DNA from: an uncultured Chloroflexia bacterium
GTDB lineage: Bacteria; Chloroflexota; Limnocylindria; Limnocylindrales; CSP1-4
Reading direction: 5' to 3'
DNA length: 64,000 bases
Assembly (NCBI GenBank): GCA_963698505.1
Contig: CAVORC010000030.1
Span: 3,401-67,400 of the forward strand
This document shows, in pieces, positions 29,419 to 55,245 of this stretch. The position numbers were made by a program, and so were the translations under genes. The notes below the pieces were generated by a model. It searched no databases. It saw only the letters and a list, made by a program, of their open reading frames with translations, and was not told the DNA's origin. Positions within the stretch are counted from its first letter, which is position 1. Every line of letters begins with the position of its first letter.

Positions 29419-29493
29419 TGGTCGGGGTGGCGGGGATCGAACCCGCGACCTCATGCTCCCAAAGCATGTGCGCTACCGCTGCGCTACACCCCG
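29419..29493 (-). tRNA. tRNA-Pro(TGG)
   Basis: CGGGGTGTAGCGCAGCGGTAGCGCACATGCTTTGGGAGCATGAGGTCGCGGGTTCGATCCCCGCCACCCCGACCA: cloverleaf, TTCGA T-loop, encoded CCA. Confidence 0.97.
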
Positions 29494-29605
29494 ACGTGGT
29501 TCGTGCGTGACTAGGGTACACAGCGAGGCTGGATGGCGATGCACCGAGGCCTACAGCGCTCGAATCGCAGGATAACCCCACGACACTGCCTTGCTCTACT
29601 TGCCT

Positions 29606-29634
29606 GCAACAGATAGGCGCGTGGGAGCCTCTCT
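29606..29634 (+). promoter_or_regulatory. Putative ECF-dependent promoter GCAAC-N18-CTCTCT
   Basis: Same motif at 30368, 54505 and 55246, always upstream of ECF-module genes. Confidence 0.6.
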
Positions 29635-29775
29635 ACGGTAGAGGGGTCGCATGCTCGCCGAGCTTGACCACGGCGAGGACAGGGTGTCGCAGGGCAGTCG
29701 ACCGTGCTGGCCGCCAGAGACTGCGCCGACTCGCCGACCGAACCGACCCCCCAGGGCGGCCGAAGGGGGAACGAC

Positions 29776-30270
29776 ATGTTCAGCACGATGCGCAGTGCCG
29801 CGGTCCTGGCCATCGGAGGGCTCCTGGCAACGGCGATGATCGGCGCGGCAGCCGAGCCCACCGAAGTCACTGGTGAATCGAACTGCGTGGAGGTAGGTGG
29901 GGCGGTCTGGAGTGGTGAGCCGATCTCGGGGCTGCCCGGGTCTCGTGAGACGAACTACATCCAGGAATGCAGCACCACGAGCTCAGACGAGCGGTTCTCA
30001 GGAGACACATACAACGTGGTGACCTGCGACTTCAGCGTCGACGGCGAGGCCACGGTCGGTACGTGCTGGGGCACCGTGACCATCCACAACGAGCGCGGGG
30101 CCTGGGGCGGCAGCTTCTCCGGCACGACCAGCTGGAGCGACGCCGCGCCGGCGCATCTCCACGTGATCGATCTGGACTACCTGGGAGCTGGCGACTACGA
30201 AGGACTCCGCTTCAAGGGAGTCATCACCGGCACCGACTTCCCGTGGACCATCACCGGGACGATCGAGTAG
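29776..30270 (+). CDS. Secreted beta-rich protein of unknown function (paralog of 54666..55157)
   Basis: AAGGGGG RBS, signal peptide, SDERFSG, GAWGG, YLGAGDYEGLRF. Confidence 0.8.
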   Translation: MFSTMRSAAVLAIGGLLATAMIGAAAEPTEVTGESNCVEVGGAVWSGEPISGLPGSRETNYIQECSTTSSDERFSGDTYNVVTCDFSVDGEATVGTCWGTVTIHNERGAWGGSFSGTTSWSDAAPAHLHVIDLDYLGAGDYEGLRFKGVITGTDFPWTITGTIE

Positions 30271-30367
30271 GGGCGACCCCATCGACCTAGCCAAGGGACC
30301 AATGCAACTTGCCGTGTGCTCCGCACCAGCCCAACCTGTGGCAGATCGACGGAGCACTCGGCGAGGC

Positions 30368-30397
30368 GCAACAGCGACATGGGTTCGGAGCCTCTCT
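30368..30397 (+). promoter_or_regulatory. Putative autoregulatory ECF promoter, leaderless transcript
   Basis: gcaacag...ggagcctctctctggtATG; same layout at 55246. Confidence 0.6.
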
Positions 30398-30402
30398 CTG
30401 GT

Positions 30403-30942
30403 ATGACGGCGTTCGCAGCGGCTGACTCGATGGCAGCGGTGCTGCAACAGGCTGTCGCCGGAGATGAGGTCGCCTTCGCCCGTATCGTGTTCGCCTATCA
30501 CGGGGACATGCTGCGTGTGGCTTATGGCATCTGCGGCGAGCAGGGCCCGGCGCAGGACGCGGTCCAGGCCGCCTGGCTCATCGCCTGGCGCAAGCTGCGC
30601 ACGGTGCGCCAGCCCGACCGTCTGCGGTCATGGCTCGTGGCGGTCGCCGCCAATGAGGCTCGCCACATCGTCCGGCGTCGTGGTCGGCGGCGGCTCGTCG
30701 AGCTGGCCCTGGACCCGCCCGATACCGGCTCGCCCGACCCGGCGGACGAGATCCGGCGCGTCGATCTCGTCAACGCTCTGCAGCGCCTCAAGCCCGAGGA
30801 GCGTTCGCTGATCGCCTTGCGCTACGGCGCCGACCTCCACTCGGACGAGATCGGCCCCTTGCTGGGTCTCACGGCATCGGGCGTCCGGGCACGCCTCGCG
30901 AGGCTCATGACCAGGCTGCGAAAGGAGCTCGGCGATGCCTGA
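30403..30942 (+). CDS. ECF RNA polymerase sigma factor
   Basis: AGDEVAF, AQDAVQAAW, WLVAVAANEAR, LKPEERSLIALRY. Confidence 0.92.
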   Translation: MTAFAAADSMAAVLQQAVAGDEVAFARIVFAYHGDMLRVAYGICGEQGPAQDAVQAAWLIAWRKLRTVRQPDRLRSWLVAVAANEARHIVRRRGRRRLVELALDPPDTGSPDPADEIRRVDLVNALQRLKPEERSLIALRYGADLHSDEIGPLLGLTASGVRARLARLMTRLRKELGDA

Positions 30943-31660
30943 GCGCGAATCCTTCGAGACACGGTTCGCACGCGCCTACCGGCGGTACCTCGACGAGGTC
31001 CCGACCGACGTCGATGCCCTCGCGGTGGCGCGGACCGCGGCGAGCCAGCGTCACTTCGGCCTCGGTGCCCGGCGGTGGGTGCCAGTCCTCGGTGCGGGTG
31101 TCGTCGCGGTGCTCCTGGGCAGTGCCTTGCTGGCAGGCGTGCTCTCGACACCACCCAGGGACGAGCTGATGCCCGGGGCATTGACCAGCTCACCGTCGCC
31201 CGAAGCAGTGTCGGCGACCGAGCCCGCGCTGGGCTCGATCACGCTGGAGGTCACCGACCTCGTCGGCATGGAGGGCCTGGACCTCGTCGGGCATGTCACG
31301 CACTGGGTCCTGGAGACCGATGAGCCACAATCGCTCCCCGACTGGGACATCATCCACCGCCCCGTGGACGCCTCTCCGTTCTCGGCATCCGGTCAGGTCG
31401 AGGTACTGGCGGGGCCACATGGGCTGGTGGTATTCGCTGGAGAGCCGACCTGCGACTTCGGCTACGACCCCCTTTGCGGGTGGCCGGTGACGGGGGACGA
31501 GGTGTCGAAGGACCCTGACCACGGTTGCGAGCTGACCTTCGACCTCCAACCCGGCGAGCACATCAGGATCAGGCTGAGCGGCTTGCCACCGTGGGCGTGG
31601 GCGGCGGGAGCCCTCCCTCCGTGCCAAGTAGAAAGCTGGACCCGCGCGCGGGAACCTTGA
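30935..31660 (+). CDS. Putative anti-sigma factor (N-terminal domain, TM, extracytoplasmic domain)
   Basis: Overlaps sigma gene; FETRFARAYRRYLDEVP N-terminus shared with 55813..56481; single TM. Confidence 0.7.
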   Translation: MPERESFETRFARAYRRYLDEVPTDVDALAVARTAASQRHFGLGARRWVPVLGAGVVAVLLGSALLAGVLSTPPRDELMPGALTSSPSPEAVSATEPALGSITLEVTDLVGMEGLDLVGHVTHWVLETDEPQSLPDWDIIHRPVDASPFSASGQVEVLAGPHGLVVFAGEPTCDFGYDPLCGWPVTGDEVSKDPDHGCELTFDLQPGEHIRIRLSGLPPWAWAAGALPPCQVESWTRAREP

Positions 31661-31718
31661 GGCCGGCCGACCAAGGCCGACCAGTCCGTAGATCGCGTTC
31701 GAGGGTATCAAGCTGCAC

Positions 31719-31925
31719 CCACGCTCGCGAATCACACAATAGTCGACGCCTTCGCCGCTCAGCCCGTCACGCTCACGGGCTCCGAGCCTTCGACGCTCGA
31801 GCCTGAAAGGCTCCCAAAGCATGTGCGCTACCTCTGCGCTACACCCCGACGGTGTTCGTGCGTGGATAGGGTACAAGGCGGACCCTGCGAGTGGAGTCGA
31901 AGGGCCTACGGCGCTTCTAGCGCTC
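31719..31925. repeat. att-like unit: arm + tRNA-Pro 5' half (31810-31848) + leader
   Basis: 39-nt match to 29455-29493 with 1 mismatch; flanks homologous to the units at 32720 and 39393. Confidence 0.9.
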
Positions 31926-31963
31926 GGCCCCGGTGCTACTGAGCGCCCAGTCGTCATCGAAGA

Positions 31964-32614
31964 CTACGTCCATCCTGGTGGCTTGTGGATGCTGCGGCCG
32001 GAGGGGAGACGAAGCGGCGACGGCAACTGCGCGGCCAAGAGCAACGCCGGGTCGAGCGATGTCCACGAGGAACCCGCGTGCGACATCTGATAGGGCGCCT
32101 TCGGTCCAGTTGGTGTCGATGTCGGGCCACGCGGACTGATGACATGGACGGGGCCGAAGCGACGGTTCGCCTCCCTGACCGGGGTCTCGAGATCAGAGTC
32201 ATCCGAGATGACCACGGCCGACTCGTAGAGATCGTCCAGCCCGTCCAGGAGCAAGTACGTCGCAAGGTTGACGTCCGAGCCCTTCTCCTCGGTCTTGAGG
32301 ACTCGAGCGGTGCGCCTCTTGCCCGGTCCCGACTCCGCAAGGGGCATGGCCACCGGGTGGGTCCGGAACTGACCGAAGTGGACCGTGACCAATGGCAAGG
32401 TGCCGAGAGCGGCAAGGTAGAGCTTCTGCCTACCGGGAGCGGTGGAATCCCGATCGCCCTTCACGCGCGCCGTGAAGTACCTGATGGCATCGATGGTGTC
32501 GTCAGGTCGAAGAAGGTGTGATAGCGCAGCGAGGTCCAGCCACCGTGCCGCCGGCCGAGCCTTCAGAGCCCCGTAGTACAAGTTGAACCCATCTACGTAG
32601 ACCCGAACCTTCAC
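31964..32614 (-). CDS. NYN-domain (LabA/DUF88, PIN-like) ribonuclease
   Basis: VYVDGFNLYY, IRYFTA, EEKGSDVNLA, VISDDSD; GTG start after GAGG. Confidence 0.9.
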   Translation of the reverse strand: MKVRVYVDGFNLYYGALKARPAARWLDLAALSHLLRPDDTIDAIRYFTARVKGDRDSTAPGRQKLYLAALGTLPLVTVHFGQFRTHPVAMPLAESGPGKRRTARVLKTEEKGSDVNLATYLLLDGLDDLYESAVVISDDSDLETPVREANRRFGPVHVISPRGPTSTPTGPKAPYQMSHAGSSWTSLDPALLLAAQLPSPLRLPSGRSIHKPPGWT

Positions 32615-32635
32615 ATGTTGGCCCTCGTCGCCGTT

Positions 32636-32672
32636 AAAAAGAAAGAGCCCGACGGGCGAAACCGCCGGGGCT
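32636..32672 (-). terminator. Intrinsic terminator located 5' of the NYN gene
   Basis: Minus strand agccccggcggtttcgcccgtcgggct followed by ctttcttttt; TATACT at 32681-32686 just upstream. Confidence 0.75.
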
Positions 32673-32719
32673 GTAGTAGCAGTATACCGTGGTAGACCGG
32701 CGGTCAACAGGGGCCTCAT

Positions 32720-32890
32720 CCACGCTCGCGAACCGCACAGTGATCGAGGCCCTCGCCGCTCGAGCCTATGAGGCTCCCAGCGCATGTGCGCTACCGCTGC
32801 GCTACACCACGACGAGATCCGAGCGTGGATAGGGTACGCAGGCCAGCACTTGGACGGTAGCGATGCGGCCTACAGCGCTCGAATCGCAGG
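32720..32890. repeat. att-like unit: shortened arm + tRNA-Pro 5' half (32773-32811) + leader
   Basis: 39-nt match with 3 mismatches; ggcctacagcgctcgaatcgcagg identical to 29548-29571. Confidence 0.9.
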
Positions 32891-32961
32891 TGAAGTCAGA
32901 ACCACTCGGATTGGGGTTTCCCACGATTGTGGCCGCGTGACCGAACCCCGATGATGCGCAG

Positions 32962-33315
32962 GTGCGAGCTAGTGTGCTCATCGTCGACGATCACGCGGAC
33001 TTCCGCGATTCCGCACGAGCCATGCTCGAGGTGGCCGGCTTTGACGTGGTCGGTGAAGCAGCCGACGGGGCCGAGGCTCTCGCGGCCGTACGGCAGCTCA
33101 ATCCCGCCATCGTGCTCCTGGACATCCAGCTGCCGGACACCGACGGGTTCCGTGTCGCCGAAGCTCTGGCGCAGGAACCGGAGCCGCCCACGGTCGTGCT
33201 CATCTCGAGCCGCGATGCCGCCGCCTACGGGCACCGCGTGGCGGCCTCCCCGGTGCGGGGCTTCATCCCCAAGCTCCTGCTGAGCGGCAACGCTCTCGCG
33301 GAGCTCGTGGGATGA
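32962..33315 (+). CDS. Stand-alone response regulator receiver protein
   Basis: VLIVDDH, VLLDIQLPDTDG, LISS, FIPK. Confidence 0.88.
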   Translation: MRASVLIVDDHADFRDSARAMLEVAGFDVVGEAADGAEALAAVRQLNPAIVLLDIQLPDTDGFRVAEALAQEPEPPTVVLISSRDAAAYGHRVAASPVRGFIPKLLLSGNALAELVG

Positions 33316-35030
33316 GCCGGTCGATCCCGGCGGTGCTCATCCTCCTGGCCCCGGGCATCGTCGTGCTTGGCGCGGCCGCCGAATGGGCGGCGTTTGGACC
33401 TGCCGGCCACGCGGGTCCGCAGCTCGACGCCACGTATCGGTGGATCCTGGACCTCCTCACCGGGTACGTCTTTCTCGCTGCCGGCGTGGCCGTGGGCGTT
33501 CGGCGCCCCCACAGCCTCATCGGACCGCTCTTCGTGCTCACCGCGGTGGCGTGGTTCATCGGGACGCTGGTCGAGCCCGCGCGCTTCGTGGGCACGGAGC
33601 TGGCCCCGTCGGTCGTGTTCCTCTACCGCGGTCCCCTGATCCACGCCATCGTCACGTTCCCCACGGGTCGCCCGGCAGACCGGGTCGAGTGGACGGCCGT
33701 CCTGGTGGGCTACGGTTGCTCGCTCGCGGCGCCGCTGTGGTACCACCCGATGACCGGGCTCGTGCTAGTGGGGCTCCTGGTGGCAGTCACGCTGCGCGGG
33801 TATCGACGCGCGGCCGAGCGCACCCGGCCGGCCCGCCGCGAGGCACTGGGAGCAGCGACACTGCTGGCCACCACGGTCGGGGTCATCACCGTTGGGCAGG
33901 CCATTGACCCGCCCTACCCGTTCCGTGATGTCATGGAGATCGGCTTCAACCTGGTGCTCATGGCCATCGCGCTCAGGCTGGCGCTGCGCCTTGTCCGCTC
34001 CGACCGGCCCGACCTCACCGATGCCGTCGTCGAGCTGGCCGGCGGATCGACGGCCTCGCTCAGCGCGGAGCTCTCGCGCCTGCTGGGCGATGCCTCCGTC
34101 CGCTTCGGGACGTGGGACGCGCAGTCGGAGACCTACATGGACGATTCCGGGTCACGGTTCGCGACGGTATCTGGGAGCGAGCGCTCGCTTGTGCGTGTAG
34201 ACCAGCATGGCGAGCCATTCGCCGCCGTGGAGCACATGCCCGGCACCCTGGACGACATCGAGCTGCGGGATGCCGTCGTTGACGCCGTCCGACTGGCCGT
34301 TGCCAATACCCAGCTCCGAACTCAGGTGCGGGCCCAGGTCGACGAGCTGGTCGCTTCCCGGCACCGCCTGGTCGTGGCCGGGGATACCGAGGGCGAGCGA
34401 CTCGCCGCTCGGTTGCGTGAAGGTGCCATGCGCCGGCTCGAGGCCATGGAGCGCCAGCTCGAAGCAGCAGCGTCGACCTCGGCCGGAGCCGGGGCCACCA
34501 GCTCATCGGAAGCGATCGGCCGAGCCCAGTTGCGCCTTGGACGCCTGACCGACGACCTGCACGACTTCGCGCTTGGGCTGGACCCCCGGTCGCTGACCGA
34601 TAGCGGCCTCAAGGCCGCACTGATCGAGCTCGTCCGTGACTGTCCGATCGAGGTCGAACTGCGCTGCGAGGTGCGCTCGGCACCGCGGGAGATCGCCTCC
34701 GCGGCGTTCCTCGTCTGCGCCGAGGCACTGGCCAACGCCACCAAGCATTCTCGAGCGTCGCATGTCGACGTCGAGATCGCGGCGACGTCCGGGCTGCTCC
34801 ACATGAGCGTCACCGACGACGGGGTCGGGGGCGCGACCGTCGGAGCGGGCCACGGCCTGCGCAACATGGCGGACCGCGTCGCGTCGCTCGGCGGCCGGCT
34901 TGCGGTCGAGAGTGCCCCTGGTCGAGGCACCCGGCTCGCGGTGACGATGCCGCTGCCTGTGGATACCCGCAATGACATCACGGCGGTTCGCACGGCCAGC
35001 ACTGATGTGGCGCTCTCGGGCGGTTCGTAG
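33312..35030 (+). CDS. Membrane sensor histidine kinase (NarX/HisKA_3-like), phospho-His box appears degenerate
   Basis: TM region, EALANATKH, DDGVGG, GHGL; LREGA in place of LHDGA. Confidence 0.85.
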   Translation: MSRSIPAVLILLAPGIVVLGAAAEWAAFGPAGHAGPQLDATYRWILDLLTGYVFLAAGVAVGVRRPHSLIGPLFVLTAVAWFIGTLVEPARFVGTELAPSVVFLYRGPLIHAIVTFPTGRPADRVEWTAVLVGYGCSLAAPLWYHPMTGLVLVGLLVAVTLRGYRRAAERTRPARREALGAATLLATTVGVITVGQAIDPPYPFRDVMEIGFNLVLMAIALRLALRLVRSDRPDLTDAVVELAGGSTASLSAELSRLLGDASVRFGTWDAQSETYMDDSGSRFATVSGSERSLVRVDQHGEPFAAVEHMPGTLDDIELRDAVVDAVRLAVANTQLRTQVRAQVDELVASRHRLVVAGDTEGERLAARLREGAMRRLEAMERQLEAAASTSAGAGATSSSEAIGRAQLRLGRLTDDLHDFALGLDPRSLTDSGLKAALIELVRDCPIEVELRCEVRSAPREIASAAFLVCAEALANATKHSRASHVDVEIAATSGLLHMSVTDDGVGGATVGAGHGLRNMADRVASLGGRLAVESAPGRGTRLAVTMPLPVDTRNDITAVRTASTDVALSGGS

Positions 35031-35065
35031 TGTCGAGGTGTCCATCCCCCCACGGAGGAAGCACG

Positions 35066-36899
35066 ATGTTCGGCAGACGCAAGGCCATCACCATCTCCAT
35101 CTCGGCGGCGCTCATCGCCGCCACGCTCACCGCCACGGGCGCCACCGCCCAGTTGGGCAAGGGCGGTGGCGCGGTGCCACCCGTCGCGCTGGAGCTCGCG
35201 GTCGCCGAATGGGCCGGCAGCGGACTGGTCGACACGTTCGCCGCCACTGTCGACGAGCTGTCGGGCGGCCAGATGCGTATCGACATCGACTGGGACGGTG
35301 GCCCGGAACAGGTCGTTCCAGCCCGGGTGCAGGACGGCGAGGCCGACCTAGGCTGGGTCTTCGCACGCGGCCTCAACGCGAGCGGCGTACACGACCTGGA
35401 CGCCCTGCTCACCCCCTTCCTCGTCTCCGACGGAAGCCTGCTCACCGCCATCATCACCGGTCAGATCGGGTCGGATATGTTGGCCGGGCTGGCTGATGAC
35501 GGTCTAGAAGGGTTGACCCTGCTCCCCGGGAGCCAGCGTTTCTTCGTCGGGATCGGACATCCGCTGGCGGCACCCGCGGACTTCGACGGAGCGCGCATCG
35601 CCCTCACGGGGACGCCGTTCACCGATCGCTTCGTCGAGTCGCTGGGGGCGGAGCCCGTCGAGATCGATCTGGACGACCGCGCCGCCTACGAGGAGCAGGA
35701 GATCGACGGCCTGCTGACGGTGGCCAACAACCTCGGGCTGTTCCCGGATACCTACATGACGGCGAACCTCGTGCCGTACACGGTCCCGGTCATCGTCCTC
35801 GCCAACGCAGCAGTCATGGCCGAGCTGACGCCGGAGCAGCAGGATGTCCTACGCGCCGCCGCCTTCGAGGTGAGGGGCCAGATGCTCGACGAGATGCCGA
35901 GCGTCGAGAGCGCCGCGGCCCGCTGTGGCACGGGTGGCGCGGTCATCGAAGCAAGCGATGCCGACGTCCTCGCGGTCGAGGCCGAGACGCGGCCGGTTCG
36001 CGACTGGCTGGCGACCGACACTGCCACAGCCGGGTTCATCGAGCGCATCGAGGCCCTGAAGGCCGAAATCGACACCGCCGGTCTGGCCCGCAACCTGTGG
36101 CACGGTGCCCCCGGTCGGGACGTCCCTCGCCGGCATCCCCGACGGCACCTACAGGGCGGTCGGTACTCGCCAGGACTCGCTTCGCACCGGATGGGCGAGT
36201 GAGTGCGACCTGGAGCTCGTCGACGAGCACATGACGCTGGTCATCGAGGACGGCGGCGGCACCTGGACGGCGCTTGCATCCTGCGGGGACGGACCTGCCC
36301 AGGTGGGGGCGACAGGTTCGTTCACCTACGAGGGTGATCGGGTGACGATGCGCGAGCCCGGTGAGGTCGGTGAAGCAGTGTTCACGTGGTCGGTCGAGGA
36401 CCAGACCCTGACGCTGGGACTCGTGGCGCAGGATGAACGCTATGCTCCGCCCGAAGCGCTGCGGTACATCTTCGAACGCGCATTCGAGCTGGACTCATCC
36501 TCCGGCGCGCTCACCCGGATCCCTGACGGCACGTACAGGGCGGTCGGTACTCGCCAGGACTCGCTCCGCACCGGATGGGTGAGCGATTGCGACCTCGAGC
36601 TCGTCGACGAGCACATCGCGATGGTCGTCGCGGACAACGGGGCCTCATGGACGCTGCTCATCGCCTGCGGTGACAGCCCATTGGAGACGGGTGCCGCCGG
36701 TACTGTCGAGTACTCAGATTCGGGCGAACAGCTCACTGTGCTGGAGCCCGGATACCCGCGCGGACAGACATTCGCCTGGTCGCTGGACGATGGAGCTCTC
36801 ACGCTCACGATCGTTGAGCTCGGTGGTGCATCCGAGGAGGATGTCGCTGCCGGGAAGTTCCTCTTCGAGCGCACGTTCACGATGGACTCGCCCTCGTGA
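35066..36899 (+). CDS. TRAP DctP-like solute-binding protein with two tandem C-terminal beta domains (frameshift near 36100)
   Basis: GGAGG RBS, signal peptide, ELSGGQMRI, DFDGARI, LTPEQQDVL; IPDGTYRAVGTRQDSLRTGW occurs twice. Confidence 0.75.
36135..36617 (+). repeat. Intragenic domain duplication (~100-bp near-identical starts at 36135 and 36519)
   Basis: tacagggcggtcggtactcgccaggactcgct present twice. Confidence 0.85.
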
Positions 36900-36918
36900 C
36901 AGCGAGACGCCCCGCGGC

Positions 36919-38736
36919 GTGACGTACGAGCGACGCGCGCCCGGACTGGGCCGGGCCTGGAGTCCCACGTGGGTCCCCAGGCCCGGCCTTCGGGCCGCCC
37001 TCGCGGCGGCGGGCACGGTCGTGGTCATCGCCGCCGTGCTGGCCATCCGTGACTCCGCCAACTGGCGGACGTCGTATGCGGGCGCCGTGCCAGAGGCAGC
37101 AGTGGCGGATCTCGCCGCGGGGGTCGGCCTCATCCTGTCCGGCCTGTACGCCGGCGCCGAGCGAGGCCTGCGCCGCTTGGGCCTGGCCCTGACGCTGCTT
37201 GGTATCGCCTGGCTCGCAGCAGACCTCGTCGGCTGGCAGGGAGCTCTGCCGTACCTCCGAGTTCTGGCCACGACCGGTACCCTGCTGATCGTGCCGCTAC
37301 TGCTTGACATCGTGGCCATGGCACCGCCTCCGGCACAGGCCTCTTCATCCGTCCGCTCGCTCGTCGCCGGCGGCTACGTACTCGCAGCGTCGGTCGCGGC
37401 ACTGCTCGTGCTCGCGCAAGATCCACTCGCCGACGCCGCCTGCTGGGACTTCTGTGGAGCGAACCCGCTCCTGCAGACCGGTCTCGCTGGCGTGGAGCCG
37501 GGGTTGTCAGCGTTCAGCTCCATGTTGCTACTCGTCGGTGGCGCCATCGTCGCAGTCACCGGCGTGGTGCGTCTCGTCAGGTCCGGGACGGCGCGCCGAG
37601 ATCACGCCTTGGTGCTCCTCCCGGGAGCCATCGCCGGCGTGCTGGTCTCCCTGCGAGCCCTCGCGCTCGCCTGGCGCGACTCGACGGGCCCAGCGGACGG
37701 ACCATCCGTGGCCCTATTTCAAGCCATGGGCTGGGCGCTGGCCGGACTCGCGGTGGGCGCGGTCGTCGTGGCCAGGCGACGACGACGCGTGCGGGCATCG
37801 CTCCGGTCGCTTGCAGCGCGCGGCCCCGATGGCCACACTGCACGCCGGGCGACCCAGGCACTGGCGACGGCCACCGGAGACGGGAGCTTGCGTGTGGCGT
37901 ACCCGCTGTCGGATGCGGCCGGCTACGTCGATGCGATGGGTGCCCCCCTGGGTCCCGTCGGTGGAGGGGGACGCGTTCTGACCACGATCATCCGCGGTGA
38001 CCAGACGGTGGCGGTCATCGAGCACGATCCGAACCTCATCGGCTCGATCGAGTTGGCTGAGCACATCGGCCCTGCCGTCCGGCTTTCCCTCGAGAACGAG
38101 CGCCTGGACGCCGAGCTGCTGGCTCGAGTGCGCGAGCTGCGGGCCTCCCGCGAACGGATCGTGGCCACGGCTGACCGTGAGCGAGTTCGCCGCGAGCAGG
38201 CCCTCCACGACGGGGCGCAGCAGCGTCTCCTGGCACTGACCTACGACCTCCGCGCCGCCCGAGAGGCGGCTGACGGAGCCTCGCGGATGCTGACCGTGCA
38301 CCTGGACGAAGCCATCGCAGATGCTCATGCTGCACATGACGAACTGCGGGAGCTGGCCCATGGGATCTATCCGGCGGTCCTGGGGGAGGCCGGGTTGCAG
38401 CCCGCGCTGGAGGGTCTGGCAGAGCGGTCCGCGATCCCTGTCCGACTCCATGCATCCGGCGTCGGTCGCTGCGACCAGGGAGCGGAGATGACAGCCTATG
38501 TCATCGCTGACGAGTTGGTCCGCGATGCCGTGGCACGAGCCGCGACATCCGCCGACATGCACACCTCCCTGGAAGTCGGGGCCCTGGTCCTCGATGTTCA
38601 GGACGATGGCTCGGCGCCCGCGTCGCCCATCGTGCACGGCGTGGACCGCGCCGGGGCCGCCGGCGGACGTCTGCTGCTGTCGGGCCACGATGGCGCGGTT
38701 CGGCACCGCATGGAGGTGCCATGCGCGTCGTCGTAG
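36919..38736 (+). CDS. Membrane sensor histidine kinase (HisKA_3)
   Basis: Multiple TMs, ALHDGAQQRL, ELRELAHGIYP, VQDDG. Confidence 0.85.
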   Translation: MTYERRAPGLGRAWSPTWVPRPGLRAALAAAGTVVVIAAVLAIRDSANWRTSYAGAVPEAAVADLAAGVGLILSGLYAGAERGLRRLGLALTLLGIAWLAADLVGWQGALPYLRVLATTGTLLIVPLLLDIVAMAPPPAQASSSVRSLVAGGYVLAASVAALLVLAQDPLADAACWDFCGANPLLQTGLAGVEPGLSAFSSMLLLVGGAIVAVTGVVRLVRSGTARRDHALVLLPGAIAGVLVSLRALALAWRDSTGPADGPSVALFQAMGWALAGLAVGAVVVARRRRRVRASLRSLAARGPDGHTARRATQALATATGDGSLRVAYPLSDAAGYVDAMGAPLGPVGGGGRVLTTIIRGDQTVAVIEHDPNLIGSIELAEHIGPAVRLSLENERLDAELLARVRELRASRERIVATADRERVRREQALHDGAQQRLLALTYDLRAAREAADGASRMLTVHLDEAIADAHAAHDELRELAHGIYPAVLGEAGLQPALEGLAERSAIPVRLHASGVGRCDQGAEMTAYVIADELVRDAVARAATSADMHTSLEVGALVLDVQDDGSAPASPIVHGVDRAGAAGGRLLLSGHDGAVRHRMEVPCASS

Positions 38737-39365
38737 CCGAGGACGTCATGCTCACACGCGCGGGCATCGTGCGCCTGCTCGCCGATGCCGGGGTCACTGT
38801 CGTCGGCGAGGCTGGCGACGCGAACGCGCTGCTGGAGCGCGTGCGTACCCTGCGACCGGACGTGGCCATCGTCGACATCCGCATGCCGCCGACCCACACC
38901 GACGAGGGCCTCGTGGCCGCCGACCACATCCGCGCGGAGTATCCCGACACGGGTGTGCTGGTGCTGTCGCAGTACGTCGAGTCCAGCTACGCCATGCGCC
39001 TGGTCGAAGGTCATCCGGAGCGCTGCGGCTATCTGCTCAAGGAGCGCGTGTTCGACATCGCCGTGCTCCTCGACGCCCTGCAACGCATCGTCGACGGCGA
39101 GACCGTCATCGACCCCACCGTCGTGGCCAGACTGCTGGCGCGGAAGCGCCAGCACGATCCGCTCGACGACCTCAGCCTTCGTGAGCGCGAAACCTTGGTA
39201 TTGGTCGCGGAGGGACTCACCAATCGTGCCATCGCCGAGCGGCTCTTCGTGACGGAGCGAACGGTGGAGGCCCACATCAAGCAGGTCTTCGACAAGCTCG
39301 GTCTCGACGAGTCGCCAGACGCCAACCGTCGTGTCCTTGCGGTGCTAGCGTATCTCCGTCAGTAG
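38721..39365 (+). CDS. NarL/LuxR-family response regulator
   Basis: VVVAED, DIRMPP, LSLRERETL...GLTNRAIA...TVEAH. Confidence 0.94.
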   Translation: MRVVVAEDVMLTRAGIVRLLADAGVTVVGEAGDANALLERVRTLRPDVAIVDIRMPPTHTDEGLVAADHIRAEYPDTGVLVLSQYVESSYAMRLVEGHPERCGYLLKERVFDIAVLLDALQRIVDGETVIDPTVVARLLARKRQHDPLDDLSLRERETLVLVAEGLTNRAIAERLFVTERTVEAHIKQVFDKLGLDESPDANRRVLAVLAYLRQ

Positions 39366-39392
39366 GAGGATCTGAAGACGTCCCTGACCACG

Positions 39393-39590
39393 CCACGCTC
39401 GCGAACCGCACGATAATCGAGGCCTTCGCCGCTCGGCCCACCACGCTCAGGACTCCGGAGCCATCGCCGCTCGAGCCCGAAAGGCTCCCAAAGCATGTGC
39501 GCTACCGCTGCGCTACACCCCGTCGAAGATCGTGCGTGACTAGGGTACACAGCGCGGGTCGATGGCGACACCGAGGAGCCTGCAGCGCTC
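39393..39590. repeat. att-like unit: arm + tRNA-Pro 5' half (39484-39522) + leader
   Basis: 39/39 match to 29455-29493; cgtgcgtgactagggtacacagcg shared with the leader of the intact tRNA. Confidence 0.92.
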
Positions 39591-39662
39591 GGCCGAGCGA
39601 CTACAGGGCATTACCGTCGATGCCAGCCGGTCACCTGGCCGAATTGGCTGGCTTCCCGAGTG

Positions 39663-40414: not shown

Positions 40415-40488
40415 CATGCGATGCTCTGGCCGGAAGCATGGCTTGATGCGCTCGGTACGACCGCACGAGGGGTGCTGAGCGACGGCCT

Positions 40489-40905
40489 TCAGGCAGCGTG
40501 TCGAAAGGGGTTCTCCACGCGGATGCCGTCGTAGTCAGAGGCATCGTCGAGATCCTCGGACAAGACCACCGAACAGCCAAGAGCACGAGCAGCTTCAAGG
40601 ATCGCCGCGTCCCAGTAGGAGATGCCGAAGCGGCTCCGCGTCGCCAGCGCCGCTCGCATCACATCGAGACTCGTGACCTGCGCCGGGAATCGACACCAGG
40701 CTTCCACCAGTCCGGCTGCCTCGTCGTGGGTGATCGCGTCTTCTCGAGTCGCCCGCGTCGCCTGGACGTAGAACTCCTGCAGGACCTGCACCGAGAGGCC
40801 GATCCCACCACCGTCGATGATCTGGTTCGCGATCATCGCCTTGCCTTCCTCCGCGGGGTCGCGTGAGATGGCGTACAAGAGGATGTTCGTGTCAACGAAG
40901 CGCAC
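40489..40905 (-). CDS. PIN-domain (VapC-like) toxin
   Basis: FVDTNILLYA, SVQVLQEFY, SYWDAAI, LSEDL. Confidence 0.92.
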   Translation of the reverse strand: MRFVDTNILLYAISRDPAEEGKAMIANQIIDGGGIGLSVQVLQEFYVQATRATREDAITHDEAAGLVEAWCRFPAQVTSLDVMRAALATRSRFGISYWDAAILEAARALGCSVVLSEDLDDASDYDGIRVENPFRHAA

Positions 40906-41131
40906 GTTCGTGAACCTCATCGCGTGTCAGGCGGTCCATCGCTCGGAAGCGCGTGATCTGGCCTTGGATGCGACGCTGCTGCGCTTCCAACCGCGAGAAC
41001 TCGGCGTCATCGTTGGAAAGCGAGCGCAGGTAGGCCGCGACCAGGCCACTGACCGACCGACCCTCCTCCGCGGCTCGGATGCGAGCGGCGCGATAGACGT
41101 CGTCAGGTACGGAGACCGTGATGTTCTTCAT
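40892..41131 (-). CDS. Ribbon-helix-helix antitoxin (VapB-like)
   Basis: MKNITVSVPDDVYRAARIRAAEEGRSVS...LTRDEVHER; overlaps the toxin. Confidence 0.88.
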   Translation of the reverse strand: MKNITVSVPDDVYRAARIRAAEEGRSVSGLVAAYLRSLSNDDAEFSRLEAQQRRIQGQITRFRAMDRLTRDEVHERALR

Positions 41132-41147
41132 CCTGTCACAGTAACGC

Positions 41148-41170
41148 AGTCTCACAGTATCTGTGAGACT
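41148..41170. promoter_or_regulatory. Palindromic operator of the RHH-PIN operon
   Basis: agtctcacag-tat-ctgtgagact inverted repeat just upstream of the antitoxin ATG. Confidence 0.7.
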
Positions 41171-41199
41171 CTCGCAGCGAGTCCCTGCACAGGGGTCCG

Positions 41200-45773: not shown

Positions 45774-46955
45774 TTACGGGTCGATCAGGTCGGCCACGGT
45801 CTGGAACTCCGGGTCAAGGACGGCGAGGGCGCTGAACAGGGCCCCGCTGTCGGCGCAGGTGTTGGTGAAGACGACGGCCGTCTCGCCGGTCTCAGGGTCA
45901 TGGCCGGCCCAGCCCTCCCAGCCGATGGCCTCGCCCTCGTGACCGAACTGGGTCCCGGCCTGCATGATGCCGAGGCCGTAGGTCAGCGGGCCACCGAGGC
46001 CAGCATCGTGCTGCTCGAGCCGCTCGGCGGCGAGCTCGTCAGAGAGCAGCGCGCTGCCGCTCATCGACGCGGCCCAGATGGCGAGGTCGTCGAGGTCGGA
46101 GTGCATGCTGCCGCCGATCTGCCCGTAGCTGGCGTTCCAGTCGGTCGTGTCGGTGTCGTCAGGCACCGGCTCGGCCCCGTCGCGCACCAGCTCAGCCACG
46201 CAGGCCGGGCTCATGTAGCCGCGTGCGAAGGGCTCGGGCAGGGTGGTGTCGTCGTTGTACGGCAGCGCCGTGTCGGGCATGCCCAAGGGCTCGGTCAGCC
46301 GCTCCGTGACCAGCTCCTGGATGGTCTTCCCGGTGAGGGTCTCGGCGATCTCCTGGAGGATGACGTAGCCGGTGGTGCTGTAACCGGGGGTACCCACGGG
46401 AGCCAGGCCACGCTCGACGCCGTAGCCGATGAGGTCGATGGGGTCCCACTGCGTATCGGGCGCCCGGGTCACAGCGGCCACCGTCGCATCGGCCACGTTC
46501 ATGTAATCGGGGATGCCGCTGGTCATGCCCAGCAGGTCGCGGATGCTGATGTCGGCGACGTCGGGGAACTGCTCAGCGAGCTCGGGATCGGCCTCGGCGA
46601 CGGTGTCGTCGAGCGACAGCAGGCCCTCGTCGACGAGCTGCAGGATGATGGCCGCGCCGAACGTCTTGCTGACGCTGCCGATGCGGAAGTGGTCGTCGAG
46701 GCCCGCGGCGCGACCGGCTGCCACGTCAGCGAGCCCATAGGCCTGCTGGTAGGAGCCGCGCTCGGGGCTCCACAGGCCGACGTAGAACGCGGGCACCTCC
46801 GGGTGCTTTTCCATGACCGCGGCGATACCGGCGTCGATAGCTGCGCTGTCCTCGGCGGACATGGGTTCGCTCGGCAGCTGCACGTCGGCCGCGGCGGCGG
46901 AAGCTGCCAGGGCCAGCGTGAGGAGTGTGGAAGTGAAGAGTGCGGGCGTGCGCAT
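45774..46955 (-). CDS. Secreted serine hydrolase (beta-lactamase/D-Ala peptidase family)
   Basis: FRIGSVSKT (SxxK), YSTTGY, FGHEG. Confidence 0.88.
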   Translation of the reverse strand: MRTPALFTSTLLTLALAASAAAADVQLPSEPMSAEDSAAIDAGIAAVMEKHPEVPAFYVGLWSPERGSYQQAYGLADVAAGRAAGLDDHFRIGSVSKTFGAAIILQLVDEGLLSLDDTVAEADPELAEQFPDVADISIRDLLGMTSGIPDYMNVADATVAAVTRAPDTQWDPIDLIGYGVERGLAPVGTPGYSTTGYVILQEIAETLTGKTIQELVTERLTEPLGMPDTALPYNDDTTLPEPFARGYMSPACVAELVRDGAEPVPDDTDTTDWNASYGQIGGSMHSDLDDLAIWAASMSGSALLSDELAAERLEQHDAGLGGPLTYGLGIMQAGTQFGHEGEAIGWEGWAGHDPETGETAVVFTNTCADSGALFSALAVLDPEFQTVADLIDP

Positions 46956-47099
46956 CGGTTCTCCATGGGGACAGGTATGAGGTGGGTCGATTCTGCCAAG
47001 GATCGCTGAGGCGCGGGCCGATCGGCCTGGTGCGACCCAGCGGCGCCCGAGGTGGATCGGCCAGTCGAGGCTTGAGACCTGCCGTGAAGACAGGAGCGC

Positions 47100-48596
47100 T
47101 CAGGCCTGCAGGAACGGAGGTTCGACGTTGACGGGTTCGCCCCGGCTGACCCGGAAGTCGCAGTGCCGCCCGCCTTGCGCGATGGTCTCGGTCCGATCGA
47201 GCCGCAGGCCCATCTCCGCGAACTGGGGATAGTCGACCCAGCAAAGGAAGGGGGCAAGCTCGGGGGCACCTTCCCGCTGCAGGTACTTGACGATCCCGCA
47301 CTCGGTGACGTCCATCCCCATCTCGAACGACCGCCCGTCGCCTTCGACGACCTCGTAGACCCAGTCGTCCGGATAGCGGCGTTGCCGGCTGATGGCGGCC
47401 GACCGTCTCAGCTGCTCCTGGCGCTTCCGACCCAGCATCCGCCTGCCCTGCCAGCGCATGAGCCAGCGGGTTGGGACGCTGTCGAAGAAGCTCGCCGTCC
47501 CCAGATAGATGAGCCGGGCAGCCTCCTCGACCGTTGCCCCGCGCGCCTGTAGGGTTCGGTACATCGCCAGCATGGCGGCGGTGAGGTAGAGGTTCCTCGT
47601 GTAGCGGTTCTCATCACCTCCGATGTATGGGATCTCCGGCAGGAGGGCCTCGAAGCTCCGGAGCGACTCTCGTGCGATCGCCTCTCCCTCCGACTGGCCG
47701 TAGGTCTCGACGAGGTGCTTCCGGTAGTGTCGGAGGGCGAAACTCACCTGCCTCATGATTCGACCCTTGCGCCTGACGTACCAGAACTCGGGGCCCATGC
47801 GCCTGACCTGCTCGACCTTGGCCGGCGAGGGAGCGGCCTCTCGACGGAGCTCGGTCGGCAGCTCCCGCCCGCTGACCCAGGCCTCGACCGTGCGGATGTG
47901 CAGGTCAGGATCCGCCTTCTGCCAGCAGTGTCCGAGGTCGGGGACGTACCAGGCCTCGGCCCGGGGCAGGACCTCGGCCAGGGCGGCGTTCATCGATCGG
48001 ACCACGCGCTCCTTCTCGCCAGCGACGAGCAGGGCGGGACTCGGCGCATCGAGGGCGGCAAACTCCCCGAAGCACTCCCCGACCACGCGCCCGAACTCCA
48101 GGCGTGATGCGACCCGCAAGTCCTCCGGGTCGTGCGTGTCGCGGAAGAACGCCATGAGCGGGCGCGTGTGGATGAATGGCGCCATGGCGAGCATGCACAG
48201 ACGCATGATCGCGCGGCCGATGCGCGGCGTGCCAAACGGGGGTGAGCCGTCGATGACAGCCCGCTCGACGCGGTCGGGGTGGCGATCCAGCAGGGCGTGG
48301 ATGTGCAGCCCGCCCGAGGAGATGCCCACGACGCTCGCGCGCCTCTCCGGGACCCGGGCCTCGATGAGCTCGGCGAGCAGATCCGCCACGCGCTCCTTGG
48401 TCGCCGACCCGAGACGGTTGCTGCGCCCGAACCCAGGCAGGTCTGGCGCCAGGCAGTGGAAGCCAGACAGCCTGTCCATGTGCTGGCGCCACTCGCGGCT
48501 GCTCTGGCCGGCGCCATGGATGAAGACGATGGCCGGCGAGCCCGGGGTCCCGGACTCCTGGACATACAAGCCGCCAGAAGAACGCTGCTCACTCAT
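47100..48596 (-). CDS. Alpha/beta hydrolase fused to an L-2-amino-thiazoline-4-carboxylate hydrolase-like domain
   Basis: FIHGAG, PDLPGFG, GISSGG; C-terminal DVTECG...LCWVD...RTETIAQGGRHCDFR. Confidence 0.8.
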   Translation of the reverse strand: MSEQRSSGGLYVQESGTPGSPAIVFIHGAGQSSREWRQHMDRLSGFHCLAPDLPGFGRSNRLGSATKERVADLLAELIEARVPERRASVVGISSGGLHIHALLDRHPDRVERAVIDGSPPFGTPRIGRAIMRLCMLAMAPFIHTRPLMAFFRDTHDPEDLRVASRLEFGRVVGECFGEFAALDAPSPALLVAGEKERVVRSMNAALAEVLPRAEAWYVPDLGHCWQKADPDLHIRTVEAWVSGRELPTELRREAAPSPAKVEQVRRMGPEFWYVRRKGRIMRQVSFALRHYRKHLVETYGQSEGEAIARESLRSFEALLPEIPYIGGDENRYTRNLYLTAAMLAMYRTLQARGATVEEAARLIYLGTASFFDSVPTRWLMRWQGRRMLGRKRQEQLRRSAAISRQRRYPDDWVYEVVEGDGRSFEMGMDVTECGIVKYLQREGAPELAPFLCWVDYPQFAEMGLRLDRTETIAQGGRHCDFRVSRGEPVNVEPPFLQA

Positions 48597-48630
48597 CTCG
48601 TTACCCCCTAGTGCAGACGCGAACGTGGGT

Positions 48631-49371
48631 TCATCGCTTCGGCCGTGCGAGGTGGCCGACACCGACCTCGCGCGCGGCGGCCACCGCAGCGGCCACGCCG
48701 TCGGTCCAGGGCTCCCCGTGCCCGGGCAGCAGCCAGTGGGCCTCGAGCTCCTCGATGCTCGCCAGGGAGGCCAACGCTTCATCGGGATCGGCAGCGAAGG
48801 GACAGACCTGCGGACCCCGGCGCTGGCTGATCACCGCGTCCGTGGCCAGCGCGTCACCGACGAAGAGCGCGTCGTGCCCCGGCGCATGGAAGGTGACGCT
48901 GCCGGGCGTATGTCCGGGTGTGTGGATGACACGCAGCGCACCCGGGATGTCGAGCGTCGTACCCGGGTCGAAGGTGCCGACCTCCGTCAGCGCCGTGGTC
49001 CGCATGCCACCGCGACGCGCGAGCCACAGCATGTAGTGCAACAGGGAACGAAGCCTGCGCTCGCCCATGCCGGCGCTCGGGTTGGCCACTTCGCCGCGGG
49101 CCAGTGCGGCGTCGAGCTCGTGGATGCTGGCGGGCACGCCGCGCTCGACTCGCAGCCGCTCGGCGAAGCCGATGTGATCGTCGTGGCCGTGGGTCAGCAC
49201 GAGGACGCGGACGTCCTCGATCGTGCGGCCCATGGCGGCGAGCTCGGCTGTCAGCTCGCTGTAGTACGCGGGCACACCGGCATCGATGATGGTGACCTCA
49301 CCGGCCTCCTCGAGGAGGTAGCAGCTGACGATCGCTTCCCCCAGTCGGTGCAGGGATGGGGCAAGTCGCAT
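48631..49371 (-). CDS. MBL-fold metallo-hydrolase
   Basis: THGHDDHIG, TPGHTPG, GDA, LPGHG. Confidence 0.92.
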   Translation of the reverse strand: MRLAPSLHRLGEAIVSCYLLEEAGEVTIIDAGVPAYYSELTAELAAMGRTIEDVRVLVLTHGHDDHIGFAERLRVERGVPASIHELDAALARGEVANPSAGMGERRLRSLLHYMLWLARRGGMRTTALTEVGTFDPGTTLDIPGALRVIHTPGHTPGSVTFHAPGHDALFVGDALATDAVISQRRGPQVCPFAADPDEALASLASIEELEAHWLLPGHGEPWTDGVAAAVAAAREVGVGHLARPKR

Positions 49372-49381
49372 CGGATCGCCC

Positions 49382-50071
49382 TCACTCCGCGGCCACCGGG
49401 GCCGTGGCTGCCGCTTCGTCCGTCGCCTCGAACGCTGATGCCGCCGACTTCACGCCCTGGGCCAGCAGCGCCTTGGAGAACACCGGCATCACCGAGACCG
49501 TGACGTCGTCGAAGCCCGCGTCCTCCATGGCCAGCCGGGCGGCGTCGTCGCTCCACTGCCACTCGCCCCATGCGTTGACGGCGGCGGCGGTCGAACCCGC
49601 GGGGACCTGCTCCGCCTCACCCATGGTCACAGCGATCCGGCCGCCTGGGCGCAGGACGCGGTACATCTCGCGGAGCGCCTGCCCGGGATCAGGCACGAAC
49701 TTCAAGACGTTGACCGACGTGACGACACTGAAGCGTCCGTCATCCCACGGCAGCGCAGCTGCGTCAGCGAGGACGATCTCGGCCGTCCCCGAGCCGATGC
49801 GTTCGGCCAGGCGTTGGCGAGCCATCGAGACCTGGAGGTCCGACGCGTCGAGGCCAGCGACGTAGCGCACGTGGGCGGCGTGATCGACCAGTAGCCCGGC
49901 CGATCCGCAGCCGACGTCGAGCAGGTCGTCAGTGGGCTGCAACTCGAGCACGGCGGACATCGCCTGTGAAAAGGAACGGCTGACTCTCCTCATCAGCCGG
50001 CTGCCGATGCGACCAAGCAGGCCCTGCGGCAGACCGAAGAACGATCCCCAGAACCTTCGGCGCAGGCCCAT
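49382..50071 (-). CDS. Class I SAM-dependent methyltransferase
   Basis: LLDVGCGS, ADAAALPW, YRVLRPGG. Confidence 0.9.
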   Translation of the reverse strand: MGLRRRFWGSFFGLPQGLLGRIGSRLMRRVSRSFSQAMSAVLELQPTDDLLDVGCGSAGLLVDHAAHVRYVAGLDASDLQVSMARQRLAERIGSGTAEIVLADAAALPWDDGRFSVVTSVNVLKFVPDPGQALREMYRVLRPGGRIAVTMGEAEQVPAGSTAAAVNAWGEWQWSDDAARLAMEDAGFDDVTVSVMPVFSKALLAQGVKSAASAFEATDEAAATAPVAAE

Positions 50072-50092
50072 CGTGCGTCCCCCTTGCGCGCG

Positions 50093-50167
50093 AGCCGGGT
50101 TCGCCAGTGGCTCTGTGCGGTCCAGGCGGCCATCATCGATGGGCCGCGCGTCATCGCCTCCCGCTAC
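50093..50167 (-). ncRNA. c-di-GMP-II-like riboswitch (variant), copy B
   Basis: CGGG-A-GGC-GATGA...TGGCCGCCTGGA...GA-GCC-ACTGGCG-AA-CCCG; GATAAT just upstream; ~22 nt before the start codon. Confidence 0.72.
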
Positions 50168-50364
50168 CGTTGATTATCCCGCGGACGCCAAGCCGGCAGC
50201 CGCCATCGGCTCCTGGACGGTGCACGGGTGCCTCAGCCTCGACGGTCCGTCACCCGATGGTCACGGCGGTGAGGCACCCTGTGGGCAGGCCGGTGCGCCC
50301 CGAGCTCGCGTGATGGCGAGCCGAGGCGCCGGCGTCCACGATGAACACTGTGGGGTGACGGACG

Positions 50365-51012: not shown

Positions 51013-51071
51013 GCTGAGGCTCTCTGGCAGCGCCAGTCAGCTCCGAATGGCCGACGCCCGCATGAGCGGCG

Positions 51072-54477: not shown

Positions 54478-54504
54478 TCGCCGGTGCGGCGGCATCGGCT
54501 GCCT

Positions 54505-55157: not shown

Positions 55158-55245
55158 GACCAGCGGAGCGAGGACGAAGGCCTCTTGTCGAACGCGGCAG
55201 GGCCGACCAGGCTCGGAACAGGTGCGACGATCGTCGCACCGAGCA

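Follow-up and report, generated by a model that had tools for sequence, protein, structure and literature searches.

In integrons, small cassettes that carry no recombinase and that each bring a recombination site of their own are stacked at a single attachment point by a Xer-like integrase that has no arm-binding domain. Genomes lacking the integrase can contain orphan arrays, and clusters of attC sites without an integron integrase exist. We describe here an arrangement of similar logic at a tRNA gene. The DNA in question, referred to below as the window, is a stretch of 64,000 nucleotides from an uncultured Chloroflexia bacterium of the order Limnocylindrales (positions 3,401 to 67,400 of contig CAVORC010000030.1, assembly GCA_963698505.1), in which three gene segments without a recombinase are stacked beside tRNA-Pro(TGG), with a copy of the 5′ half of that tRNA at every junction. 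We read the segments, with a probability that we put at about 0.6, as non-autonomous cassettes built on the attachment (att) site of an integrase family that targets the tRNA 5′ half; together they would form an additive island at tRNA-Pro(TGG), which in this genome would be an orphan array.

The other close relatives among described systems are islands at tRNA and tmRNA genes. In the part of the Islander work drawn on here (PMC4383910), the displaced fragment is the 5′ one in 159 of 3919 islands, compared with 3760 islands with a 3′ fragment; four arrays of three or more islands are given, and an integrase is required in each member. As described there, such islands share with the window an intact tRNA with displaced fragments in direct orientation at the ends, an attP of about 250 bp that includes a tRNA fragment, a crossover at the anticodon-loop sublocation and a tyrosine integrase family tied to its target. 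In Dehalococcoides, which likewise belongs to the Chloroflexota, the sections of PMC3146451 used here count 15 ssrA islands without an integration module and 16 with one. The same sections define cis-mobilizable elements (CIMEs) as flanked by att sites and devoid of integration and transfer genes, a feature also found here, and autonomous elements with the same arm exist among the relatives. The Tycheposon islands of Prochlorococcus, in the portion of the preprint at hand (10.1101/2020.12.28.424599), are additive and seeded at specific tRNAs including tRNA-Pro(tgg), and contain partial tRNA copies; newcomers push older material outward, the integrases cluster by target tRNA and distal remnants decay. 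Among the matches listed by a literature search, no paper bore the name of the order; we do not claim on that basis that the system is unpublished.

The single tRNA of the window is tRNA-Pro(tgg), at positions 29419–29493 of the minus strand (ARAGORN). A repeat search revealed a four-copy direct-repeat family of 108 nt at 29455, 31810, 32773 and 39484 (spacings 2355, 963 and 6711), made up of the 5′ 39 nt of the tRNA and about 70–80 bp of upstream leader, and a second family, the arm, which begins at 31719, 32720 and 39393, one copy ahead of each displaced half. By BLAST, the displaced halves at 31810, 32773 and 39484 are 97.4%, 94.4% (over 36 nt) and 100% identical to the 39-nt half, and the 3′ part of the tRNA (36 nt) occurs only once. 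The 39-mer 29456–29494, shifted by one base, has four sites at up to three mismatches, the expectation from 100 shuffles being 0.00. An initial annotation, made from the letters alone, had noticed the three further copies of the 5′ half, and the repeat search, BLAST and the shuffled control all bear it out. It had also begun the core at 29455 and ended the array at 39590; the repeat copies stand, but shared identity begins at 29453, 2 nt earlier, and blocks that are unit-bounded elsewhere reach about 56463. Islands at tRNA genes pair the intact gene with a directly oriented end fragment on the correct side; here, too, the 5′ fragments share the strand of the tRNA and are found upstream of it.

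The intact tRNA thus supplies, with its 5′ 39–41 nt (29453/29455–29493), the core common to all units. The leader that now serves it (29494–29579, minus strand) carries, on the minus strand, a TACCCT resembling a −10 element, and its distal box is similar to the outer box of the arm; the unit hidden Markov model (HMM) matches 29454–29579 with model positions 110–235. Unit 1 (31719–31931, +) consists of an outer box and a 91-nt arm at 31719–31809, the tRNA 5′ half at 31810–31848 and a leader (E 4.7e-61). In unit 2 (32720–32895, +) a short arm (32720–32772), which lacks one internal sub-repeat, is followed by a half with three mismatches at 32773–32811 and a leader, and unit 3 (39393–39604, +) has its outer box and arm at 39393–39483, a half without mismatches at 39484–39522 and a leader (E 7.4e-67). 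A profile built from 41 internal units matches, at E ≤ 0.01, only these four copies in the window.

The general anatomy of the unit was derived from an alignment of 55 units and then from a profile of 74 full units. The homologous leader motifs and arm start pointed out by the initial annotation are visible in this profile and in a separate alignment. The unit spans about 210–235 bp and contains, in this order, an outer box, an arm, a tRNA core and a leader. The outer box (about 40 nt) is strongly conserved; the arm is made of two sub-repeats, and its portion adjoining the core comes in two variants; the core corresponds to 41 bp of the 5′ part of the tRNA; and the leader, with TACCCT on the tRNA strand, ends in a partial second outer box in direct orientation. 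The 41 bp core and the outer box of about 40 bp are 88–94% identical in all comparisons. We could not detect an attC-like hairpin: as single-stranded DNA, unit 39393–39604 gave a z of −1.57, with 12 of 200 shuffles folding equally well or better. A structured RNA was likewise dropped, since the minus-strand transcript of half and arm gave a z of +0.55 against shuffles. Because neither form folds better than shuffled controls, we take the conserved boxes as putative protein-binding sites on duplex DNA. The two outer boxes are direct rather than inverted repeats, which also differs from an attC hairpin. Lacking an attC-like fold and, in the window, an integrase beside the site, the array does not belong to the integron family, to which it had at first been likened.

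Genomes are denoted below by codes beginning with G, G000 being the genome of the window (61% complete, 59 contigs, 2.5 Mb), and locus pieces or contigs by codes beginning with L. With the arm alone as the query, matches were found in 20 of the 49 genomes of the genus, the richest being G034 (18 copies), G066 (9), G022 and G021 (8 each) and G068 (7). G034 contains the intact tRNA plus 18 further 5′ halves, and no 3′ half is repeated in any mapped array; only 5′ halves recur. Wherever a mapped array holds the intact tRNA-Pro(TGG), the tRNA marks one end and adjoins a conserved left flank (PLP enzyme, DUF2568, SRPBCC). The outer box was also found on 45 metagenome contigs, all 45 of which match the unit HMM, with the box only in three, and it had no match on viral contigs. 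Over all DNA scanned the profile finds 148 units in 62 sources. Consecutive units enclose 366–7469 bp of cargo (median 2100; n=80, one of them an artefact of overlapping hits), and 21 of these 80 intervals measure only 366–956 bp, leaving room for about one small gene.

Cassettes are almost never found with the same neighbours. When the 74 full units were compared between sources together with 250-bp flanks, 87 pairs from different sources had the right flank in common and 84 the left, and a single one of these 170 pairs kept both. Content and order at tRNA-Pro(TGG), which the initial annotation had proposed to compare among relatives, therefore differ between them. The middle cassette of the window, E2, together with both flanking units, matches cassette 3 of G030 at 87.5% identity, and the homology extends no further than the outer ends of these units; this, with the shuffled neighbours, upholds the earlier view of the segments as cassettes that have arm, tRNA 5′ half and leader as their boundaries. 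The first cassette, E1, has its counterpart at array position 2 of G021 (84.7%) and also inside the G068 array. For a given pair of genomes, identity is higher between common cassettes than between the conserved left flanks (89.6 and 75.0%, respectively, for G034–G030; 88.4 and 74.7% for G034–G010; 87.5 and 78.7% for G000–G030; 84.7 and 76.2% for G000–G021; 91.2 and 77.2% for G021–G022). This fits transfer after the species split, although stronger constraint on the cassettes may be an alternative cause of their higher identity. Units are no more similar within an array than between arrays (arm 0.706 and 0.706; leader 0.675 and 0.682), nor are neighbouring units, and concerted evolution or duplication of the target was accordingly rejected as their origin.

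The point of exchange was judged on eight pairs of units with flank identity of at least 96%, since only young pairs are informative; in the majority of pairs, unconstrained stretches of the unit have reached saturation, at about 70% identity. In a trio sharing the right cassette (98.4–98.8%), differences number 10–15 of 45 positions in the arm, 0–1 of 47 in the core and 0–4 of 54 in the leader. In a pair sharing the left cassette (99.6%) they number 2 of 45, 0 of 47 and 28 of 55, respectively. In both comparisons ancestry switches within model positions 106–152, that is, in the tRNA core, and one further young pair agrees mildly. An exchange point inside the tRNA half, as originally supposed, was thus mapped in the trio and in the 99.6% pair. 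Judging from these few independent young events, the arm appears to move together with the left-hand cassette and the leader with the right-hand one, in keeping with the cassettes as first defined.

We searched for the responsible enzyme with a tyrosine-recombinase HMM built from integrases of the genus, applied to all stop-to-stop frames of at least 70 amino acids in the arrays and contigs (5402 frames, 62 sources, 633,552 bp). There was one match, an intact gene in G008, a genome of this same genus, and no integrase remnant besides it at E ≤ 1e-3; the control recovered 23 frames of integrase loci. PF00589 matched nothing in or beside an array in 10 array genomes, and nothing on the contig of the window. 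The G008 integrase (L059:9917–10855, 312 aa) combines a PF00589 match of 103 bits with a SAM-like domain at the N terminus and showed no separate arm-binding domain. It is closest to XerC/XerD models, far below the NCBIfam cut-offs, and scores 58 bits with the integron-integrase model (cut-off 265). The gene lies upstream of tRNA-Pro(TGG) and is directed away from it, with about 123 bp between its start codon and the 5′ end of the tRNA, and the element runs for a further 5.9 kb or so before ending in an outer box, an arm and a 20-nt core. The initial annotation had recommended looking for tyrosine recombinases next to the same arm; G008 has one in an element that ends in this arm.

The G008 enzyme belongs to a wider family. 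Its homologs in the genus, at 42–55% identity, lie upstream of tRNA-Arg(TCG) (seven), tRNA-Ala(GGC) (one) and tRNA-Val(GAC) (one). In the class as a whole, a homolog at E ≤ 1e-50 is present in 71 of 301 genomes (a tally that includes three genomes flagged unpublished, which enter into no other result given here), and among the best 20 class loci 11 lie beside tRNA-Pro(TGG) (65–77%), five beside tRNA-Val(GAC) (59–64%) and four without a tRNA in the fetched piece. Ten integrase-bearing tRNA-Pro loci were examined; the element ends in a unit-HMM match at its far end in G008 and in four of the nine loci from other genera, so that a tyrosine integrase family that replaces the tRNA 5′ half and promoter, and is cognate to the unit, does exist. 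In G280 and G265, two of these four, a further unit follows after a short integrase-less stretch. At six of the ten loci a clustered gene adjoins the integrase, and all four of those tested encode Replic_Relax (PF13814), a family that scores over the cut-off in one of the 49 genus genomes and not in G000. An N-terminal integrase-family fragment (50%, residues 11–138) was seen in L221 (G068:C29:233645–236986) immediately downstream of tRNA-Gly(TCC) and on its strand; a position upstream of the tRNA, with the gene directed away, is common to all other members of the family.

Other recombinases were considered and set aside. Clustering of 17 non-Xer integrase loci from the array genomes gave no family common to them. 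One 420-aa tyrosine integrase of G000 (C13:102912–103757, L008 850–2112) is 91% identical to a gene of G022 (C1, L129 1270–2571); as this is far above the identity of the flanks, the gene is probably part of another shared mobile element, unrelated to the array. A serine-recombinase-like gene lies 38–65 kb to the left of tRNA-Pro in at least seven genomes (for example, G000:C31:14447–15509, which is L207 3445–5469; G030:C1:21629–22603; G009:C7:613570–614652). It was found in 15 of 20 arm-positive and 8 of 29 arm-negative genomes, counts that come from non-independent kin and incomplete assemblies. Its Pfam scores are weak, the G009 open reading frame (ORF) has no match, and in most genomes the gene is split over frames or contains stops; in G000 the region lies inside a 674-aa frame whose sole Pfam match is RhuM. 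It was therefore rejected as the enzyme of the arrays. Neither PF00239 nor PF07508 has a match inside an array, and the repeat here is a tRNA 5′ half, which also speaks against islands of the ssrA kind.

These results suggest the following mechanism. A cassette has the form core, leader, cargo, arm, and as a circle would present an attP-like site of about 210–235 bp, comprising the outer box, the arm with its two sub-repeats, the 41-bp part of the tRNA and a promoter-supplying leader with the second box. Recombination within the tRNA core would place the 5′ half and promoter of the cassette before the resident 3′ half and displace the former 5′ half and leader outward, so that every internal junction would again read arm, core, leader. 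The enzyme would most likely be a small (about 310–350 aa) Xer-like tyrosine integrase of this bacterial class. In autonomous elements the gene of this family sits 110–150 bp upstream of the regenerated tRNA, pointing away, with one clade tied to tRNA-Pro(TGG); these elements have the order leader, integrase, usually Replic_Relax, cargo, arm, and the form in the window is leader, cargo, arm. As G000 and the other array-rich genomes, to judge from their incomplete assemblies, have no such integrase gene, the cassettes would either have been moved in trans or belong to arrays that are now orphaned. The anatomy, the variable arrays across the genus, the exchange point in the core and an integrase family of like att architecture are observed; the making of these arrays by this integrase, its action in trans and any present activity of the array are inferred.

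Several observations weigh against the proposal. Searches with the tRNA-Pro integrase gave no close homolog in G000 (61% complete), G034, G030, G022, G066, G009, G010 or G014, and G010, which is 91% complete in three contigs, has only the Xer pair and a sub-threshold fragment; G009 (90% complete) has only an Xer-like pair at E ≤ 0.01. In every integrase-bearing genome that can be resolved the integrase adjoins the intact tRNA and is never pushed outward, unlike what simple serial insertion in trans would give. Three of the eight young pairs (G066/L109, G000/G030 and G068/L113) do not show the expected linkage, and a 41-bp identical core could equally serve homologous recombination. There are also no circles or excision joints among the contigs of public sequencing runs, all of which come from relatives. 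Sixteen such runs were available, all as contigs, containing at most 0.11 of the sampled words, and four of them were aligned to the window; on them the tRNA is joined directly to E3, at 32831 (X1), and to the PIN block, at 40446 (X2), and 32712 is joined to 39393 (X1), which are other arrangements in relatives and not excision events. Every internal junction being attP-like, any two units might recombine with each other, which would be consistent both with the apparent absence of the integrase from array-rich genomes and with its constant position beside the intact tRNA.

The same observations bear on other explanations. The cassettes could be the remains of autonomous elements that lost their integrase by deletion and were scrambled by ordinary recombination, with nothing moving in trans. 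Autonomous elements with the same att architecture do exist, integrase-family fragments occur elsewhere in G068:C29 and G021:C19, the distal units of the window are decayed, and similar decay belongs to the Prochlorococcus island model as far as the consulted portion of the preprint describes it (10.1101/2020.12.28.424599). Yet the units are full length with boxes conserved at 88–94%, the breakpoints of the youngest pairs fall in the core, and the lack of any integrase trace in some 80 cassettes outside the G008 gene, together with cargo that in 21 of 80 intervals has room for about one small gene, argues against plain decay, which we regard as unlikely. Remodelling would then be left to mobilisation in trans or to homologous recombination through the units. 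The latter would mean that after a first integration strains swapped cassettes with the units as portable homology, as at other flexible islands, and no site-specific enzyme for the shuffling; the conserved core and outer box would allow this, the ancestry switch lies outside the core in the three discordant young pairs, and array-rich genomes lack the integrase. We nevertheless find it rather improbable: it leaves the origin of the complete arm–core–leader site of each cassette unexplained, similarity is not raised within arrays as gene conversion would raise it, and the two cleanest young comparisons break within 47 bp.

A further candidate is the host itself, since XerC/XerD are the sole tyrosine recombinases present in all array genomes (in G009 nothing else was found, and in G010 only the one fragment), and they could insert cassettes at a dif-like site in the unit, as they do for Xer-exploiting elements (IMEX). 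The heptamer CGATAAT is indeed common to the outer box and to a dif-like site of G000:C29. Its position, however, varies among units, and the 28-nt dif-like site aligned without gaps to four units gives at best 12–13 of 28 identities, the same as the null mode of 12–13 from 500 random 240-bp windows. With no 28-bp dif-like site at the junction, both a dif mimic and an IMEX were rejected, and we consider insertion by host Xer highly improbable. The G000:C29 site itself (about 19114–19141) is the only ATAA-N6-TTAT site of the 2.5-Mb assembly and is probably the chromosome dimer resolution site.

Beyond non-autonomous cassettes on the att site of a 5′-half-targeting integrase, a bolder proposal, which we put forward tentatively and rate somewhat below an even chance, is that of a working tRNA-anchored gene-capture system parallel to the integron. 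A small Xer-like integrase, provided by a rare element with integrase and Replic_Relax or reaching the cell from outside, would both insert and excise integrase-less cassettes drawn from a large pool; with a spare 5′ half and promoter on every cassette, the host tRNA would stay intact and the junctions would all be usable. If so, Chloroflexota of soil and sediment would have arrays with as many as 18 exchangeable accessory modules.

Compared with the described systems, the arrays are integron-like in logic and are not integrons. Their site is double-stranded and attP-like, with a tRNA half, in place of a folded attC; the integrase, where present, sits in a mobile element with Replic_Relax and not on a fixed platform; and cassette orientation appears only weakly biased (122 genes on the tRNA strand versus 74 opposite). 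From Islander islands, as the part of that work used here presents them (PMC4383910), the arrays differ in the displaced 5′ fragment, in up to 18 units in a row and in members of 0.4–7.5 kb without an integrase; the integrase expected in each island is absent from the Pfam matches of the window's cassette ORFs, and the one found in 633,552 bp is that of G008. The ssrA islands, as given in the sections of PMC3146451 cited above, use a CcrB-like serine recombinase and the 3′ 20 bp of the tmRNA gene and are larger, whereas here the integrase-less form is the rule, the tRNA contributes its 5′ half and promoter, and the recombinase is a Xer-like tyrosine enzyme. Tycheposons, in the available portion of their description (10.1101/2020.12.28.424599), have an integrase and replication genes of their own as defining features, and several adjacent elements occur in few cases. 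What is unusual here is the scale and uniformity of the integrase-less cassettes, the 5′ half with its promoter and the link to a simple Xer-like integrase clade.

Island finders of the Islander type, which require an integrase in every island, reject these arrays by design, and a common route of gene gain would therefore go unseen in an abundant, uncultured lineage of soil and sediment. If the cassettes are moved in trans, they would represent a second, independent form of the integron idea, again with small modules that lack a recombinase and share one site, made from ordinary attP/attB chemistry and a tRNA gene. They would also be a tidy use of the rarely chosen 5′ end of a tRNA (159 of 3919 islands in the Islander excerpt, PMC4383910), where incoming DNA brings the promoter. 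The unit profile and the integrase clade offer direct handles for metagenome searches and for a recombination assay.

Pfam analysis bears out the early impression that the three segments of the window hold unrelated gene sets and no recombinase. Cargo E1 (29580–31718, +) comprises a 188-aa ORF (29704–30270), an ECF sigma factor (30316–30942) and a 241-aa ORF (30935–31660). E2 (31932–32719, −) holds a NYN-domain ORF (PF01936), whose longest frame is 31964–32785 and whose true start is probably internal to that frame. E3 (32896–39392, +) encodes a response regulator (32962–33315), a histidine kinase (33312–35030), a DctP-type binding protein (35030–36202), a HisKA_3 kinase (36670–38736) and a LuxR-type response regulator (38721–39365). 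Each of the three has a unit on either side (unit HMM), and their ORFs have no Pfam match to a recombinase or relaxase family. To the left of the tRNA lie DUF2568, SRPBCC and sulfotransferase-like genes.

The island continues beyond unit 3. A Phd-antitoxin block (39605 to about 40250, −) and a PIN-domain block (40445–41183, −), both recognised by Pfam, have lost their units and are unit-bounded cassettes in the arrays of G030, G021, G034, G066, G067 and G009 (BLAST against the arrays). By BLAST against the arrays and Pfam, five more blocks are unit-bounded cassettes elsewhere: one with a PF00144 fold (45775–47035), one with a hydrolase, a metallo-beta-lactamase fold and a methyltransferase (47082–50199), a MIP channel block (51045–51837), a sulfatase block (52100–54483) and a second ECF sigma trio (54861–56463). 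The single surviving trace of a unit in this part is a leader relic at about 51924–51976 (nhmmer, E 0.0011). The island is thus about 27 kb long, reaching to about 56.5 kb, and its intact units are confined to the tRNA-proximal third. The decayed distal sites fit an additive island whose older sites age, as the part of the Prochlorococcus preprint used here has it (10.1101/2020.12.28.424599).

A Pfam census of 108 array ORFs from 12 arrays (five ORFs crossing locus borders left out, and the 25 commonest of 116 families listed) gave methyltransferases (12), alpha/beta hydrolases (8), metallo-beta-lactamase folds (4), sigma factors (4), Phd (3), ParE (3) and many singletons. Genes adjacent to the arm lie on the tRNA strand in 54 cases and on the other in 51, and those adjacent to the leader in 63 and 21, respectively; capture of the displaced tRNA promoter to read the cassette on its left was therefore unsupported. 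In G034 alone, by our own reading of the gene map, 13 of 17 arm-adjacent genes are on the tRNA strand. Four genomes in which only the tRNA part matched (G007, G016, G035 and G015) were considered as empty sites and proved unusable, having a diverged 76-nt tRNA-Pro(TGG) and no flank homology. On the reverse strand of one locus of G035 (L204, C15, about 14948–15048), 10 kb from that diverged tRNA, a decayed arm and a truncated core were seen, and the core shares the variant letters of the tRNA; the system would therefore be older than the array-rich clade, with cores that track the host tRNA.

Outside the arrays, at G027:C3 (L065 5082–5106), G068:C7 (L066 5177–5201) and G022:C1 (L064 5904–5928 and 5145–5264), the outer box recurs as an inverted 25-nt stretch (24 of 25 identical) next to a small membrane-protein gene. 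In two of these genomes tRNA-Val(GAC) is 0.9–2.2 kb away, and in G022 a tRNA-Pro 5′ half that breaks off in the anticodon loop, together with a leader, occupies the place that tRNA-Val has in the others; no tRNA-Val half repeats were found near the copies in the three genomes, and this lead was dropped. Within the window, the trios of ORF, ECF sigma factor and ORF at 29704–31660 and 54615–56481 are paralogous, and the distal trio matches the same G021 and G068 cassettes at 72–75%. The interior of E3 has a direct repeat of 170 nt with 82% identity (36126–36295 and 36510–36679), where the frames 36105–36899 and 36670–38736 overlap, and on one environmental contig positions 36535–36888 are replaced by 331 other letters.

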